From: Oceanispirochaeta sp.
GTDB lineage: Bacteria > Spirochaetota > Spirochaetia > DSM-2461
DNA length: 64,000 bases
Reading direction: 5' to 3'
Assembly (NCBI GenBank): GCA_963663385.2
Contig: CAXXXD010000002.1
Coordinates: 1,440,001 to 1,504,000, forward strand
Shown in pieces: positions 50,649 to 64,000 of the stretch. How positions within the stretch are numbered: the stretch's first letter is position 1; each line of letters starts with the position of its first letter. The notes below the pieces were generated by a model. It worked only from the letters and a program-made list of their open reading frames with translations, searched no databases and was not told the DNA's origin. The position numbers and the translations under genes were made by a program.

Positions 50649-50721
50649 GGGCCGCTAGCTCAGCTGGCAGAGCAACGCCCTTTTAAGGCGTGGGTCACTG
50701 GTTCGAACCCAGTGCGGCTCA
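50649..50721 (+). tRNA. tRNA-Lys(TTT)
   Basis: Cloverleaf; anticodon stem ACGCC/GGCGT, loop CTTTTAA; no encoded CCA. Confidence 0.95.
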
Positions 50722-50744
50722 AAGGCTAACCGAACGAACAAAAT

Positions 50745-50816
50745 GTCTCCATCGTCTAGGGGTTAGGACACCGGGTTTTCATCCCGGCAACGGGGGTTCG
50801 ATTCCCCCTGGAGATG
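50745..50816 (+). tRNA. tRNA-Glu(TTC)
   Basis: Cloverleaf; stem CCGGG/CCCGG, loop TTTTCAT. Confidence 0.95.
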
Positions 50817-50819
50817 AAC

Positions 50820-50892
50820 GGGCCGCTAGCTCAGCTGGCAGAGCAACGCCCTTTTAAGGCGTGGGTCACTGGTTCGAACCCAGTGCGGCTCA
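50820..50892 (+). tRNA. tRNA-Lys(TTT), identical second copy
   Basis: Sequence identical to 50649-50721. Confidence 0.95.
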
Positions 50893-50917
50893 TCCGTTTT
50901 TGTTCGGTTAGTTTTAT

Positions 50918-50989
50918 GTCTCCATCGTCTAGGGGTTAGGACACCGGGTTTTCATCCCGGCAACGGGGGTTCGATTCCCCCTGGAGATG
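50918..50989 (+). tRNA. tRNA-Glu(TTC), identical second copy
   Basis: Sequence identical to 50745-50816. Confidence 0.95.
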
Positions 50990-54281: not shown

Positions 54282-54603
54282 CACGGAGCACTCGGGGCGA
54301 TAAGCTGCGAACCGCACAGAACTAAATGTTCTTTTACAAAGGAATTAGAGAAGGGAAATTGAAGTATTTGACGAGAGTCAAGACTGCTGCGTACCGGAGG
54401 CCCGAAGGGCTGAGGAACGCAGTAACTGGTAGAAATGTTCAAATCCTGAAACTTTACGGTTGAGGGGTTTGTCCTAGACGTTAGTTTTCTTTAGAGATAA
54501 AGGGACTGACTTTCGCTTTCAGCTGTTCAGGATGATTACATCCGCTTTGCAATGGCTGAGGGTTTTGGTAGAAAGTTATCCACCTTGTGTGGATAAATTA
54601 TAT

Positions 54604-56143
<1,540 letters not shown>

Positions 56144-56340
56144 AGCGTGAAAGGTATAAGTCTTGAGGTTTGTACGCCTTGAGCAGTGAGTCACTATTTA
56201 TAGTGCCTATCAGTAGTTACGTTCCTCGGTCTTTGACCTGTGGTACGTAACTTGCTTGATTCTCGTCAACTACTTCTAATTTCCCGTCAGATAATTCCTT
56301 AAAGGGCTTTAGGCGATTTGAGTTTAAGGCCAAACAATTA

Positions 56341-56414
<74 letters not shown>

Positions 56415-56548
56415 TAAAATTAAGTTTGTATCTTGAACAGGATCAAACTTTTTTTACGCCGAATTGCTTGCAGTGAGGCGGGAGATGCGGGAGGCTTTAC
56501 TCTTGCGGATCTTTGAAAAGGTAATAGCGAAGGGATAAATAATAATAT

Positions 56549-59472
<2,924 letters not shown>

Positions 59473-59583
59473 ATATTATTATTTATCTCTTCAGTTTTAT
59501 ATAAATTGCAATCGCTTTGGAAGCTAGGAATACTTCTGGAGAGTGAATGCTTCTTGTCAGGGTAAGACTTGATAAGATTATTA

Positions 59584-59692
<109 letters not shown>

Positions 59693-59762: not shown

Positions 59763-61394
59763 TTATAACTCTGAAAAGCAGTCCCCCTGACAGAATCCTT
59801 CCTCATGAAGGGGGCAGTTCCTGCAGATATCAAATACCGGTCTCTGAATAAGGTTATTTAGCGTAGAGTAATAGTTTCCCGGTAAATTGTCCGCCCCTGA
59901 ATATTCCTTGAATCGGTATGTATCTTTTGTTAATGCTTCGCAGGGACTGTAAGTCCCATCGGGATTAAGATTAAAATGAGAAGTAAAATCGTTCCTGTCC
60001 AGATTGCAGATATTGTTTAGATGAGTGTTCCGGAGCAGGTACTTTGATGATTCATTGTCAAAGAGGCAAAGCGGTATAGGGTTTGATATGATGATTTTAT
60101 GTCTTCTGAATTCATATCTGCTTTTTAAATGTTTAACAATAGAGAGAAGATAATCCGCATAGGTTTTAATGGTTTGTTCCGACTTAACTTTATTACAGCG
60201 GGATAATGAGGCTGACAGGCTGATAACCGGATATTGAACTATATCAATATACTTGTTAAGGAAATCCCAGCTCTCATTTTCAGTAAAAGAAACATCATAT
60301 CGCAGAACAATCTGTTTAGAGCAGGTTGTTGCTTTCAGGATATTCTGTGTTATCTGGCGGATCTGCTGTTCTGATTTCAGATTTCTATCTTCAAATAGCT
60401 GAATCACAATTTTTTTCAGATCTTCGAATCTGATAATCTGTGACCAGATATTTTCATGAAATTGCGCCGTTGATGTTATGGTTGTCTGTAGATTGAATCG
60501 TGCTGTTTCAGACAGATAATTCAGGCAGTGGGGTAAAAGGTTTTCCAGACCAGACAGGTTCAGGGTTTTCTTTTCTTTTTCTGATGCGGTAATATTTAAA
60601 ATATCTTCAAACTTTTCCCAATTTATCTGCAGATCCGGAGCTGACGTGTCTTTTTTCCGGTTGGTGCAGTGAAAGCAGCTCATCGGGCCTGAATCCCGTA
60701 AATTAATGGAAACCTGGGTTGAAACCGATTCAAAGATCTTCTCCCGTTCTGCCCTGAATGTTTCATATAGTTTGAATTTCCCTTCTTTGAAAACTATTGT
60801 GCTGTCCAGATTTTCAATTCCCGGAAAATATGCCAGAGACAGGTAATGCTGCAAAAAAAGTTCATCCGGAATGCTGGAGAGAAGGTTTGAAAGATTTCTG
60901 AGTCTAAGTTCTGACAAGAGATGCAGAAAGAGGCTGTTATTAAAATGCCGTATATCAGGGTGAAAATCCTTTTTTTCAACCAACTTCCTTTTCCTGAATG
61001 AGAAGGCGGGATCCATCATAAGGAGATCAAATGCTTTATCTCTGATTGATGGATCATGGTAGAAGAGGAGAGGCAGTATATTTTCGGTTTGATTAAAATC
61101 AAAGTTGTTTTTCTGAAGATCCAGTAAACCTTTGAGGATAAAATCATTTGAAGACTGATTACCTCTGCTTAATTCAGGATTGACTTTATGGCCGGACTCT
61201 CCTGCAGTTGACTCATTCTCCACTTCCTGTTCCATTTGATTAATATTGAATTCTTTACCGATGGATCTGATCTGATACCATATTTTTTTTATTTTACCCA
61301 TATAAAAACCCAGCTTTCTTAAATGGGCAACAGAGTTTTTAGGGTCCAGAAGAAGAATTATAAAAAGAATCAGTATAATCTCAATTAATACCAT
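59763..61394 (-). CDS. TatB-like N-terminus fused to a degenerate radical SAM core and SPASM domain
   Basis: EIILILFIILLLDPK...LRKLG.YMGKIKK (TatB-like TM plus amphipathic helix); GPMSCFHC (CxxxCxxC missing first Cys); PLC, NIC, NPDG.YSPC, CRNC-x7-C-x3-C. Confidence 0.7.
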   Translation of the reverse strand: MVLIEIILILFIILLLDPKNSVAHLRKLGFYMGKIKKIWYQIRSIGKEFNINQMEQEVENESTAGESGHKVNPELSRGNQSSNDFILKGLLDLQKNNFDFNQTENILPLLFYHDPSIRDKAFDLLMMDPAFSFRKRKLVEKKDFHPDIRHFNNSLFLHLLSELRLRNLSNLLSSIPDELFLQHYLSLAYFPGIENLDSTIVFKEGKFKLYETFRAEREKIFESVSTQVSINLRDSGPMSCFHCTNRKKDTSAPDLQINWEKFEDILNITASEKEKKTLNLSGLENLLPHCLNYLSETARFNLQTTITSTAQFHENIWSQIIRFEDLKKIVIQLFEDRNLKSEQQIRQITQNILKATTCSKQIVLRYDVSFTENESWDFLNKYIDIVQYPVISLSASLSRCNKVKSEQTIKTYADYLLSIVKHLKSRYEFRRHKIIISNPIPLCLFDNESSKYLLRNTHLNNICNLDRNDFTSHFNLNPDGTYSPCEALTKDTYRFKEYSGADNLPGNYYSTLNNLIQRPVFDICRNCPLHEEGFCQGDCFSEL

Positions 61395-61395
61395 A

Positions 61396-62091
61396 TCAGC
61401 CCCATTTCAGGAGTTTTGCAGCAGCAAGACAGAGGAGATACAGGATGAACAGGGGGATCGCTACAATAAACTGGGATAGTAGGTCCTGAGTCATGACAGC
61501 CGAAATCAACAGGGCTACGGGAATAAAATAGGGAATGAATTTAATAAGTCTGGCTCTTTTCAGAATTCGGAATCTGAGCAGTATCAGGGTAATTACCGGA
61601 AACTGGAGCGCTACACAGAAGGCCAGGGTGAATTTGAAATAGAAGCTGATGAATTCATTATAGGAAAAAATCTTGGTCAGACTATCCGGAATAAATGCTT
61701 TAGATTCCAGAAAATAGATTGTTATGGGGAGAAAAATTCTTACAGCGTAAATGGCTGTACAGTAGAGAATTAGACTTAACAGAAAAAGAGTTGAAAAAGT
61801 TGTTTTCTCTTTTTTTTCCAGAGCCGGGAGGATAAAAAGAAGAATATTAAACAGGAAAACAGGAAGAGACAATAGCAGTCCTATATACAGTGAAACCTGG
61901 ATCCTGATAGTGAAGCCTTCATAGACTTTCATTACATGAAAATCTATTTGAAAGGTGCTGTTCAGATATCCTATAAAACGAGGGAAAAGAATGTAGGCGC
62001 TTATTGAAAAAATTATGAAAAAAACTAACGCAATTATCAGTTTCGTCCGTAACTCAATGAGGTGTTGTGTAAATGTGAGGTTTTTTTCCAT
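61396..62091 (-). CDS. tatC: Twin-arginine translocase subunit TatC
   Basis: HLIELR, FILPAL...EK, FQ-like LQFPV, D.LSQ...AIP...LY; multi-TM hydrophobic pattern; next to tatA. Confidence 0.9.
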   Translation of the reverse strand: MEKNLTFTQHLIELRTKLIIALVFFIIFSISAYILFPRFIGYLNSTFQIDFHVMKVYEGFTIRIQVSLYIGLLLSLPVFLFNILLFILPALEKKEKTTFSTLFLLSLILYCTAIYAVRIFLPITIYFLESKAFIPDSLTKIFSYNEFISFYFKFTLAFCVALQFPVITLILLRFRILKRARLIKFIPYFIPVALLISAVMTQDLLSQFIVAIPLFILYLLCLAAAKLLKWG

Positions 62092-62298
62092 TTAATGGTT
62101 ATTGGAATCGGAATCGGATGGGTCATCATCCGGTTTTGAAGATTTCTCTTCACTCTCTTCTTTCATTCCGCTTTTAAGACCTTTCTTGAATTCTACCAGC
62201 CCTTCACCGATTGAGCGGCCCAGTTTCGGCAGCTTGGATGAACCGAAAATGAGTAATATGGCACCGCCAACTACAAGTATTTCTACAAGACTGATCAT
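62092..62298 (-). CDS. tatA: Twin-arginine translocase subunit TatA/E
   Basis: EI.V....LLIFG..KLP.LGRSIG.G..EFKKG. Confidence 0.93.
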   Translation of the reverse strand: MISLVEILVVGGAILLIFGSSKLPKLGRSIGEGLVEFKKGLKSGMKEESEEKSSKPDDDPSDSDSNNH

Positions 62299-62331
62299 GA
62301 GATACCTCTTTTATTAAAGCAAAGTTATTAC

Positions 62332-62595
62332 CTATTTAGTCTGTCCGTAATAGTAGTAATAATAGTAATAATAATTATAGTAGTCGGAATAGTAGTAGTA
62401 ATTGTAATAATTAGAGTAGTAATAGTAGTAATTGTAATAGTTAGAGTAATTGTAATAATCAGAGTAAGTAAAAAGATCACAGCTGCTGACGACTACTGCT
62501 GTTCCGATACCAAGACCGATTTTTCCAATTCTTTCCAGAGCCTGTCTACGGGAGATAGTCGGTTTTTCTTTGCTTTCACCAGTATCAGTTCCCAT
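62332..62595 (-). CDS. Tat-signal, Tyr-rich lipoprotein; putative radical-SAM-modified precursor peptide (87 aa)
   Basis: SD GGAG 7 nt before ATG 62595; SRRQAL twin-Arg, h-region, VSS-C39 lipobox; tail with 4x YS(D/N)YYN and poly-Tyr. Confidence 0.85.
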   Translation of the reverse strand: MGTDTGESKEKPTISRRQALERIGKIGLGIGTAVVVSSCDLFTYSDYYNYSNYYNYYYYYSNYYNYYYYSDYYNYYYYYYYYYGQTK

Positions 62596-62627
62596 TTTCT
62601 TCTCCAAAAAATGTTCTCTTATACTTA

Positions 62628-62656
62628 AGTATAAATTCAATAATATCATATATCTA
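62628..62656 (-). promoter_or_regulatory. Putative internal sigma70 promoter for the precursor gene, overlapping a 16-bp palindrome
   Basis: TAGATA-N17-TATACT on minus strand; TTATACTTAAGTATAA palindrome at 62619-62634. Confidence 0.45.
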
Positions 62657-63760
62657 CTCATTCGGAAACATTTCTATTCGATTCCCGGTTAAAGGCTCGA
62701 TATACTGTGTCATCAGTCTTTGCACTATTTCACAGGCTTCTCCCCGTTTCATAATATCCCCCTTCAAAGCCAGTGTATCGATAGGGCATCCTCCATGACA
62801 CATCCCCCAGAAACGGCAGTATTTGCAGTCAGTCTGTTTCAGAACAATTTGCCGTTTATTTATGATATCTCTTTTACTGTGTTCCAAGGCCGCTCTGATA
62901 CCGGTATTCCGGATATTTCCATAATCTGCCAGGTTTTCATCTCCTGCTTTTCCGCATTGGGAAAGCTTTCCCGTTGGACCTATGTAGAGCCAGTGGTTGG
63001 CGCAATTACCGGCATAATCACATAGAAGTCCACCTTTGCCATTTATAAACCTGATAAACATATCAATTGGACGAAGACCTTCATACTTTTCCGGATTTGC
63101 CAGGTAGATCGGCACCAGCTTTCCAAGGAAGTCGGCATACTCTTCGGGCGTAATATTTATATTGAAGGGATCATCCCCGTAAATGTAAATTTTATTAAAG
63201 GCTGGAGTTGTCTTAGTGTTTATATTTTTCAGGTGGTTAAGTATTCCTACCGGATTTTCAAGGGATCTTCTATGAACGACATATATAACCCCCCAGCTCA
63301 GGTTGTTCCGTTCAGCCAGTTCCGTTCCCTTGAAAAAAAGCTCCTTATAGATCTTTGAATCCCTTTTTTCTCCTATTCCCCGAATACCTTCTATGGGGTC
63401 GTAACTTGAACCTATCATATCAATCTTCAACTCTTTAAATACATCAACTAATTCCTGTGTCAAGCAAGTCATATTTGATTGGATCAGATGCCGGATTCTG
63501 TTTTCAGTCTCTCTGCAATAGGTTCTCTGGTATTCCAGTGCCTTTCTGAAATAGTCAGGACCAAGAAGGCAGGGTTCTCCTCCATGCCAGGTCAGCTGTA
63601 TGGATTCATCCGGGAATTCCTTTAAATAGTCATTCATACGTTTAAACACTGTTTCCAGTATTTCGAAAGTCATTATTTTTTCCTGATGCTTTTTTATAAC
63701 ACCGCAGTAAAGACAGTTGGAATTGCAGAGTTCAATGGGTTTGAAAATTATAACTGCCAT
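62654..63760 (-). CDS. Radical SAM/SPASM domain enzyme (anSME/peptide-maturase clan)
   Basis: CNSNCLYC, WHGGEP, QSN; SPASM C-x5-C...C...CKYC-x5-C-x3-C...C (8 Cys). Confidence 0.92.
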   Translation of the reverse strand: MAVIIFKPIELCNSNCLYCGVIKKHQEKIMTFEILETVFKRMNDYLKEFPDESIQLTWHGGEPCLLGPDYFRKALEYQRTYCRETENRIRHLIQSNMTCLTQELVDVFKELKIDMIGSSYDPIEGIRGIGEKRDSKIYKELFFKGTELAERNNLSWGVIYVVHRRSLENPVGILNHLKNINTKTTPAFNKIYIYGDDPFNINITPEEYADFLGKLVPIYLANPEKYEGLRPIDMFIRFINGKGGLLCDYAGNCANHWLYIGPTGKLSQCGKAGDENLADYGNIRNTGIRAALEHSKRDIINKRQIVLKQTDCKYCRFWGMCHGGCPIDTLALKGDIMKRGEACEIVQRLMTQYIEPLTGNRIEMFPNE

Positions 63761-64000
63761 TTTTCGCCTTCCCGGCGGGGCTCCCGCTTCGTTGCTGAAT
63801 CTATATATTTGAGAATGCTGTCAAACAGGATTTTATAGGAATCATCTTTTTCACACTGGTTCAGGTAAGCCATCCGGCAGCTTCTCCAGGCCGAGCAGAA
63901 AGAACACTTTTCATTATCTATAAATACTCTGGTGCGAATTTCCCGGATTTTTCTGTTTTCACAATCATTGATAATCTCTTTCAGCTGTTCCAATCCGGAA
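63748..64000 (-). CDS. C-terminal fragment of a protein with a SPASM-like Cys motif (5' end outside window)
   Basis: Frame is open to the window edge; CSFCSAWRSC (Cx2Cx5C); overlaps the rSAM start by 13 nt. Confidence 0.6.
   Translation of the reverse strand, partial: SGLEQLKEIINDCENRKIREIRTRVFIDNEKCSFCSAWRSCRMAYLNQCEKDDSYKILFDSILKYIDSATKREPRREGEKWQL

Follow-up and report, generated by a model that had tools for sequence, protein, structure and literature searches.

How would a short, tyrosine-rich peptide be matured and exported when its gene stands in one operon with radical S-adenosylmethionine (SAM) enzymes and with genes for twin-arginine translocation (Tat)? The question is raised by a 64,000-nt stretch of an Oceanispirochaeta sp. 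genome (G000:C2:1440001-1504000, hereafter the window), which belongs to a four-contig assembly of 98% completeness (G000). At its far end lies an operon of seven minus-strand genes, referred to here as the cassette: rSAM-1, p293, rSAM-2, the precursor peptide gene, tatA, tatC and a gene for a TatB-like::rSAM-3 fusion protein (rSAM, radical SAM). From sequence comparison it is largely supported that the cassette encodes a new form of rSAM-matured ribosomal peptide, characterized by a Tat-like signal, a Tyr-rich core and a translocon carried by the cassette itself. We lean, although not strongly, towards the reading that the peptide would be modified by rSAM enzymes in the cytoplasm and then exported by the cassette's own Tat system.

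A sequence-only reading of the window had described six co-oriented open reading frames (ORFs), and the ORF coordinates reproduce all the positions, overlaps and gaps that it gave: p293 and rSAM-2 overlap by 13 nt, and the junctions that follow are gaps of 58, 33, 0 and 1 nt. The count of six stands for the window; the operon proper has seven genes, since the supposed partial ORF is the 293-aa p293 that runs past the window end, and a further gene, rSAM-1, lies upstream of it, beyond the window. This continuation was read from the next 14 kb after the window (locus L004), where the rSAM-1 and p293 genes overlap by 4 nt. Pfam and NCBIfam scans of the operon's proteins, including the part past the window, gave no sulfatase, leader peptidase or ABC exporter, in agreement with what had been claimed for the visible part. 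Contigs from three public sequencing runs cover the stretch with 0, 0 and 6 differences (the assembly may have been built from one of them), and the length of the 112-nt Tyr-coding repeat does not vary among the three, as judged by record spacing. The genes of the cassette, in the order of transcription, are:

L004 5626-6621, wholly outside the window and upstream of p293, minus strand: rSAM-1, 331 aa, with the motif CVRSCPYC
63748..64000, continuing past the window (L004 4748-5629), minus strand: p293 (C-terminal part in the window), 293 aa, rSAM/SPASM-like fold
62654..63760, minus strand: rSAM-2, 368 aa, rSAM/SPASM (Radical_SAM and TIGR04085)
62332..62595, stop included, minus strand: precursor peptide, 87 aa, ATG at 62595
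62092..62298, minus strand: tatA, 68 aa, PF02416
61396..62091, minus strand: tatC, 231 aa, PF00902
59763..61394, minus strand: TatB-like::rSAM-fold fusion, 543 aa

The tyrosine-rich precursor and its recurrence

The precursor reads MGTDTGESKEKPTISRRQALERIGKIGLGIGTAVVVSSC, followed by 48 residues that include 28 Tyr, and a GGAGA sequence precedes its ATG. Of the 40 residues between the first and the last Tyr, 28 (70%) are Tyr, as are 28/48 of those after the Cys, so that the composition count bears out the 87-aa peptide with a 70% Tyr core proposed at the outset. Its layout comprises an n-region, a Tat-like motif (SRRQALERIGK), a hydrophobic stretch, a lipobox-like Cys (VSSC) and a core of Tyr, Asn, Ser and Asp. 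Twin-arginine signals of Tat substrates follow the pattern S/T-R-R-x-F-L-K, with a hydrophobic region after it. Across seven aligned orthologues R16, A19, L20, R22 and K25 are invariant. In a direct scan four of the seven are matched by TIGR01409, a Tat-signal model, with a best E of 0.008, and three by the Tat-signal part of the Iro model. When whole genomes were scanned with TIGR01409 the peptides of G038, G039 and G040 were among the listed matches, all below the 16.7-bit cut-off.

Lipoprotein signals end in a lipobox of the pattern [LVI][ASTVI][GAS]C. The Cys of the precursor stands in the context VSSC in G000 and in ATSC, ATSC, AASC and AAAC in four orthologues; poor lipoboxes are seen in L017 (LSRC) and L023 (FVDC). 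Within the cores, the triplet Y-x-[NDS] is more frequent than in shuffled sequences in L017, L019 and L020 (0, 1 and 13 of 1000 shuffles reach the observed counts) and not in L016, L022 and L023, the G000 core being marginal (77/1000). Runs of Tyr are the sole universal feature of the cores.

Recurrence of such a peptide beside homologous rSAM enzymes, on which the first interpretation of the locus depended, was found at all seven spirochaete loci and all 13 well-covered metagenome loci. Among the 38 genomes of the GTDB family of G000, rSAM-2 is present in two, G000 itself and G023 (another genus, 62% identity), and with a profile of the fusion protein 4 of the 401 phylum genomes that were sampled are positive at E <= 1e-20. 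When genome contigs were scanned, L017-L023, all seven from spirochaetes, came up together with two loci that are weak and unrelated; L021 shares its contig with L016 of G023, and L018 is too short for context. Weak rSAM matches with neither the cassette nor a Tyr-rich signal peptide were rejected (L024, Gracilibacteria; L025, Elusimicrobiota; G376). The triad of rSAM-1, p293 and rSAM-2 is found in seven loci (L004, L016, L017, L019, L020, L022 and L023), and each of them holds a Tyr-rich ORF that combines the motif [ST]R[RK]xALKR with a hydrophobic stretch and a Cys. tatC is directly followed by the fusion gene in five of the seven, and tatA is there too in four of these five. In L022 the peptide stands with tatA, tatC and the fusion gene 9 kb from the rSAM genes and on the opposite strand; in L017 the fusion gene comes right after the peptide, and the only tatA/tatC pair is of a distant type, convergent and 1.2 kb away.

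Metagenomes were scanned with the rSAM-1 alignment, 80 of 232 relatives being kept as loci. Twenty-six of these hold rSAM-1 (at least 230 bits) together with p293, and in 13 of the 26 rSAM-2 is visible and each flank extends for at least 500 nt. A Tyr-containing ORF of the RRxA[LIM]KR[IM] type was detected by pattern in 10/13 of these well-covered loci; on inspection of the remaining three, L048 and L049 show the signal 'LSRRDALKRAAK' cut by the contig end before the Tyr part, and L060 a KR-type signal with a Tyr/Asn-rich tail. The metagenome cores are varied, with sequences of the YYNYY, GYDSGYTSGY, GYGVSGDYTDS and SYSSY types. Many of the rSAM-2 ORFs in these loci are about 2.1 kb long, about twice the length, or are followed by a heptosyltransferase-like gene (TIGR02195, E 7.7e-7). 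These features hint at a possible glycosylation in non-spirochaete forms, and the window's cassette contains no such gene. The entries, based on TIGR02195 and on ORF sizes, are:

L048 10958-11872: long rSAM-2 or heptosyltransferase-like entry
L053, L054, L056, L058 and L068: rSAM-2 of about 2.1 kb

A poly-Tyr peptide also occurs in a cluster of the type that produces peptides made on the ribosome and modified after translation (RiPPs), found in G181 (L038 9152-18345, corresponding to G181:C1:221152-230345) and devoid of Tat genes. It encodes a PqqD protein (E 1.5e-9), a 49-aa peptide ending in YYYSLYYTYYYYYYY with no signal, four rSAM-type genes (rSAM-1-like ones and a fusion-like rSAM lacking the TatB part) and an rSAM look-alike, in addition to an ABC exporter, a weakly lasso-B2-like protein and a B12-binding rSAM. 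On the basis of this cluster, a poly-Tyr peptide is what these rSAM families have in common, with an export route that varies.

The radical SAM enzymes and p293

rSAM-2 carries the motif CNSNCLYC and matches both the Radical_SAM family (PF04055, 37.6 bits against a cut-off of 29.5) and the SPASM model TIGR04085 (40.9 bits, cut-off 27). Its best named models are TIGR04083 (1e-37), DynA (2.8e-35), anSME (5.4e-35) and DarE (8.2e-33), all of them far below their cut-offs, and among solved structures only anSMEcpe is related to it by sequence (E 1.8e-11). In bits, it reaches 121.9 of 450 for DynA and 113.8 of 650 for DarE, and it also stays below the cut-offs of enzymes that form three-residue cyclophanes: 80 against 310 for GrrM/OscB, 71.8 against 445 for YhhB, 38.2 against 370 for FxsB and 81.3 against 425 for AmcB. 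It is likely, as far as these similarities go, that rSAM-2 is a peptide maturase of the anSME/DynA/DarE-like branch. It is not the sulfatase maturase of the cell: its score with the anSME model TIGR03942 is 121.1 bits, short of the cut-off of 349.45, and a genuine anSME, scoring 381.5 with the same model, is encoded in G000 far from the cassette (L002 1402-2505, that is G000:C2:834474-835577).

rSAM-1 has the motif CVRSCPYC and scores 45.8 bits with PF04055. Four C-terminal cysteines (C301, C304, C312 and C316) are invariant, and no SPASM model is among the matches listed. An NCBIfam scan gave no close named family for it, nor was a solved structure found by sequence; its similarity to cofactor maturases, among them the tungsten-enzyme rSAM and MoaA, is weak.

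The third member of the triad, p293, has no match above cut-off in Pfam or NCBIfam. In an alignment of seven sequences C52, C242, C245, C251 and C259 are invariant, with four invariant C-terminal Cys kept and no CX3CX2C motif. An AlphaFold model based on the seven orthologues (pLDDT 78, pTM 0.77) gave as best Foldseek matches CteB (5wgg), anSMEcpe (4k39; TMq up to 0.57) and SuiB. According to its predicted structure, p293 is an rSAM look-alike without the SAM cluster and appears inactive. A 260-aa protein occupies the same place in the G181 cluster, the BLAST comparison between the two being not significant (E 0.35). No protein of the cassette has a Pfam match to MNIO (DUF692).

The Tat genes, the fusion protein and the route of export

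tatC is assigned by PF00902 (119.8 bits, cut-off 25.1), its score with TIGR00945 (110 against 132.7) being below cut-off, and tatA by PF02416, TatA_B_E (54.5 bits, cut-off 21). The latter is the only match to the TatA/B family in G000 at E<=0.1. The cassette TatCs of G000 and G023, two genomes in which the cassette supplies the sole Tat system, score 119.8 and 116.2 bits; eight of the ten other genomes of the G000 genus have a TatC of 151-214 bits and no rSAM-2, and the three other genomes of the G023 genus show no TatC. In a TatC tree of 19 sequences the five cassette-linked proteins lie on one side of a branch with support of 84/93, and eleven housekeeping TatCs group together with support of 99/98. 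Linkage to the cassette requires one change in 86% of the bootstrap trees, and none of 500 shuffles gave a value as low. The cassette TatC is a lineage separate from the housekeeping TatC of its relatives. G040 and G041 hold both types, and G039 holds the cassette type only; G000 lacks a TatC of the housekeeping type present in G002, a genome of the same genus. In G002 (L120 1310-6418, which is G002:C1:220810-225918) two ORFs are followed by the housekeeping tatC and a gene for a 104-aa TatB-like protein; named by reading, the first kind of ORF encodes a Cys-rich product that carries the signal ITRRDFLKF, and the second, of 700 aa, is oxidoreductase-like.

The 543-aa fusion protein consists of a TatA/B-like transmembrane helix with an amphipathic helix (residues ~1-48), an all-helical middle (~80-225) and an rSAM/SPASM-fold part. 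In its structural model, helices at 2-16 and 18-48 are followed by a disordered linker, and its Foldseek matches (SuiB, anSMEcpe and SkfB) are in agreement with an rSAM/SPASM-like fold. By themselves the Pfam and NCBIfam models of the N-terminus stay under their cut-offs; among NCBIfam models, TatB_Rickett gives E 0.0027 and SPASM E 7e-4 (19.9 bits against 27). A comparison of six fusion N-termini with eleven TatA sequences by hhalign gave a probability of 94.8% (E 5e-8, 49 columns), and one relative of the fusion carries a precomputed PF02416 hit. Pairwise BLAST of the 104-aa TatB-like protein that adjoins tatC in a relative gave E 3e-4 with the L020 fusion and E 3.5, not significant, with that of G000. 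A TatB-type subunit is made up of an N-terminal transmembrane helix, a hinge Pro and an amphipathic helix, a layout with which the fusion N-terminus agrees. Our reading of these sequences would place the N-terminus in the B-type rather than the A-type.

This protein family is rare, with 11 close relatives (E <= 2.6e-83) among 5.8 billion proteins; those named by source come from a Spirochaetaceae or Spirochaetales bacterium, and the others bear a generic radical-SAM name. PF04055 matches 11 of the 12 family members, the G000 copy alone failing. In this copy the first Cys of CX3CX2C is gone, and so is the GGEP motif; the 11 relatives keep both, and the SPASM cysteines are retained in G000. The fusion is a feature of a subgroup, since five of the 11 relatives lack the TatA/B-like N-terminus. 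In G119, a metagenome-assembled genome, the gene is interrupted by two TAG and two TAA codons (L034, or L023 5031-6410; G119:C114:5159-6697), and no tat gene lies between the peptide and the broken gene, which may reflect decay of the Tat-linked part or an error of assembly. What had been described as a TatB-like::rSAM fusion thus holds for the TatA/B-like N-terminus, on the strength of the hhalign comparison, and is to be amended for the rSAM core, which is degenerate in G000. Prediction of a complex between the cassette TatC (alignment of 5 rows) and the fusion N-terminus (6 rows) gave a score of 0.00, which counts neither way.

These elements can be joined in a mechanism, for which we infer that the Tyr peptide is the substrate, along with the chemistry, the dependence on Tat, the lipidation, the surface display and the biological role of the product. 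The N-terminus of the precursor would be a twin-arginine export signal and probably also the handle by which the maturases recognize it, given the conserved RRxALKRIA. rSAM-1 and rSAM-2 would modify the Tyr/Asn/Ser/Asp core, and would do so in the cytoplasm because both need SAM and reduced Fe-S clusters. p293 could act as a non-catalytic partner, perhaps replacing the PqqD-type recognition protein of G181. The most likely chemistry, suggested by the enzyme branch and by the Tyr/Asn/Ser/Asp make-up, would be carbon-carbon or ether cross-links at the Tyr rings (ring-to-beta-carbon or aryl-aryl/ether). Export through Tat is envisaged because a stiff cross-linked product could not be made outside the cell and would be a poor Sec substrate. 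For this purpose the cassette of this spirochaete group would supply divergent forms of TatA and TatC, and also a TatB-type subunit to which a third rSAM protein is joined; this fusion would put recognition or the last maturation step at the translocon. The exported Cys would probably be lipidated, tethering the Tyr-rich product on the periplasmic side.

Several observations weigh against this reading. Concerning the signal, two of the seven precursor orthologues have RK in place of RR, and the G000 precursor itself matches neither Tat-signal model (TIGR01409, Iro) at E<=10. Lipid anchoring would not be family-wide, since the precursors of several metagenome relatives lack the Cys and carry an Ala-x-Ala, signal-peptidase-I-like site. 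The guess of a cyclophane is weak, because Y-x-[N/D/S] exceeds shuffles in just three of the seven cores. Catalysis at the translocon cannot hold here, the rSAM core of the fusion being degenerate in G000 and its gene broken in G119; on the same grounds, if the fusion has a constant role at all, acting as a receptor or gatekeeper of the TatB type is more likely for it than catalysis. In L017 and L023 the cassette is present and a cassette-type tatC is missing, and adjacent to the 26 metagenome triads there are 0 tatA, 0 fusion genes and 1 weak tatC, so that the family as a whole does not need a private translocon. Lastly, the cassette tatC is the only tatC of G000 and could serve unseen substrates. 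The dedicated Tat pore proposed from the window is therefore upheld as to its cassette-linked lineage and falls short in that this 'own' translocase is simultaneously the cell's sole Tat system.

The strongest of the alternatives is that the tat genes are the organism's general Tat system, standing beside or captured into a RiPP-like operon, with the peptide as one client of several and the N-terminus of the fusion as a mere membrane anchor. We consider this unlikely. The presence in G000 of only one tatC and only one TatA/B gene at the Pfam level speaks for it, as does the lack of adjacent tat genes in most metagenome triad loci, where the family would normally use the Tat system of the host. 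It is opposed by the peptide-tatA-tatC-fusion synteny kept in five loci of different genera, by the separate branching of the cassette TatCs from the housekeeping TatCs of the same family, by the coexistence of both TatC types in G040 and G041, and by the physical fusion of the TatB-type module to a cassette enzyme. The census of Tat substrates bears on both sides. No protein of G000 or G023 matches TIGR01409 over cut-off, against 2 to 5 in each of four same-genus genomes with a housekeeping TatC, which argues for a single client; but in G038, with its two TatCs, nothing exceeds the cut-off, and in G039, whose only TatC is of the cassette type, there is one marginal match (17.1 bits) in another protein. 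These two cases indicate that the model is insensitive, and the statement that there is no other substrate is merely suggestive. A loose twin-arginine pattern applied to the six frames of G000 was discarded as too noisy for counting, its 117 candidates being mostly spurious ORFs or membrane proteins; a few of them could be real, which would favour a general Tat system.

Returning to cytoplasmic maturation followed by export through the cassette's own Tat system, a more specific version can be put forward only tentatively, and we think it may well be wrong: a private, modification-coupled translocon in which the TatB-type/rSAM-fold receptor recognizes the Tyr-rich precursor at TatC, carries out the last maturation step (or, in G000, just checks it) and passes only the fully cross-linked peptide, and in which the product forms a lipid-tethered poly-aromatic layer on the periplasmic face. 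If so, such a layer might act in electron or radical chemistry, bind metals or keep phage out, and the system would be without precedent on two counts: a RiPP-like product that has a Tat machine to itself, and a Tat subunit joined to a maturase.

Known systems and genomic setting

Ordinarily, release of an rSAM-modified peptide follows the removal of its leader and depends on a peptidase and on an ABC or PCAT exporter. The cassette departs from this scheme in that its leader is probably the export signal and its product probably stays attached to the cell. Literature searches found no papers joining radical SAM and the Tat/twin-arginine signal with RiPP precursors or Tyr-rich peptides; the suggestion that the architecture had not been described thus appears correct. 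The same searches found no description of the wider triad family with Tat-signal Tyr repeats, which is common in metagenomes. Should the proposed mechanism be right, Tat biology would gain a minimal system from nature, with what seems to be one client only, for studying the recognition of finished cargo, and natural-product enzymology a new class of Tyr-rich substrates together with two to three unassigned rSAM enzymes and an inactive paralogue.

In the HXS antiphage system two rSAM enzymes and a small helper mature a repeat protein that bears a signal peptide; this maturation is rSAM-dependent, and the protein then works in the periplasm, where it counters the entry of phage DNA (PMC13128918). 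By analogy with its HxsA, the Tyr-repeat product could be a periplasmic defence effector matured by paired rSAMs and not an adhesin, a redox coat or a natural product, a possibility that we rate as rather improbable. The cassette resembles it in its paired rSAMs, a candidate non-catalytic helper and a signal-bearing repeat protein that would be matured in the cytoplasm, and rSAM-2 weakly matches HxsB (E 1.5e-16) and rSAM-1 HxsC (E 1.4e-4). The patchy distribution already given (2/38 family genomes, 4/401 phylum genomes) would suit a defence function as well, and so would the base composition: the GC content of the cassette is 39.6% against 46.5%, and 4.2% of the genome windows of the same size are equally low. 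This AT-richness is compatible with acquisition from elsewhere, without proving it; mobile defence genes are often AT-rich. On the other hand, the matches are far from the cut-offs (HxsB 60.3 against 370, HxsC 20.8 against 267.9), the Pfam and NCBIfam scans of the cassette proteins gave no HxsD-family or peptidoglycan-binding match, and PADLOC returned only generic viperin-level rSAM hits. The repeats are Tyr-rich and not His-x-Ser, the signal is Tat-like with a lipobox-like Cys, and tatA, tatC and a TatB-like fusion all belong to the cassette itself.

A third alternative, that the rSAMs mature another protein or cofactor (a sulfatase or a Tat-exported metalloenzyme) and that the Tyr ORF is an unrelated small lipoprotein or no real gene, is very improbable: the nearest solved and named relatives of rSAM-2 do include anSME, rSAM-1 is weakly like the tungsten-enzyme rSAM and MoaA, and the housekeeping tat genes of relatives adjoin an oxidoreductase-like ORF and a Cys-rich Tat-signal subunit (by reading), but no such enzyme is encoded in the operon, the Tyr ORF accompanies the triad in 7/7 spirochaete and 13/13 metagenome loci as other neighbours change, in the G181 cluster PqqD and related rSAMs stand together with a poly-Tyr peptide, and the genuine anSME of G000 lies elsewhere.

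The proposed maturation of the Tyr-rich peptide before its export by Tat can also be compared with other systems. The enzymes DarE and DynA (darobactin, dynobactin), GrrM/OscB, XyeB, FxsB and YhhB belong to the same branch (GrrM/OscB, 1.7e-22), and aromatic residues followed by small polar ones are abundant in the cores, Y-x-[NDS] exceeding shuffles in three of the seven examined for the cassette. They differ in that the scores are below cut-offs and that the precursor of the cassette has a Tat-like signal and a lipobox-like Cys and no cleaved cytoplasmic leader; the cassette encodes three or four rSAM-fold proteins and no peptidase or ABC exporter. Bufferins are MNIO-modified RiPPs with Sec signal peptides, and ~16% of Buf2 precursors are predicted to be membrane-anchored lipoproteins (PMC12452194). 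The likeness lies in the export signal that replaces the classical leader of a ribosomal peptide, and the differences in the use of MNIO, not rSAM, of Sec, not Tat, in the lack of translocase genes and in Cys-rich copper-binding cores.

The maturation of exported sulfatases by anSME and that of the gamma subunit of quinohemoprotein amine dehydrogenase by QhpD (the QhpD model matches rSAM-2 with E 9.4e-14) resemble what is proposed for the cassette in that a polypeptide is modified by an rSAM/SPASM enzyme in the cytoplasm ahead of its export; unlike them, the cassette has no sulfatase or dehydrogenase partner. In Tat proofreading by chaperones of the TorD/DmsD type, a dedicated cytoplasmic protein keeps hold of the Tat signal while the cargo is still being completed. 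A role of this kind could fall to p293 or to the fusion, with the difference that there is no relation of sequence or fold to these chaperones and that the candidate has an rSAM fold, in the fusion covalently joined to a TatB-type subunit.

Around the cassette, a scan for promoters and terminators gave counts near the shuffle expectation; a TTGACT-18-TAGAAT site upstream of rSAM-1 is noteworthy. A gene for a PNP_UDP_1 or MTA/SAH-nucleosidase-like protein, divergent from rSAM-1, could be involved in the clearance of 5'-deoxyadenosine. It was considered as a member of the cassette and rejected, because among the loci scanned it adjoins the cassette only in G000. At the downstream end, a complete 16S-tRNA-23S-5S operon runs head-on into the cassette, and an array of four tRNAs lies farther upstream. 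The neighbouring features are:

L004 6722-7396 (G000:C2:1505722-1506396), plus strand: PNP_UDP_1 / MTA-SAH-nucleosidase-like gene, divergent from rSAM-1
54602-59692 (plus strand), 56341-56414 and 50649-50989: 16S-tRNA-23S-5S operon and the four-tRNA array farther upstream (Rfam)

The Rfam scores of the four-tRNA array fall in two equal pairs (64.3 and 64.3; 60.5 and 60.5), which suggests a tandem duplication.

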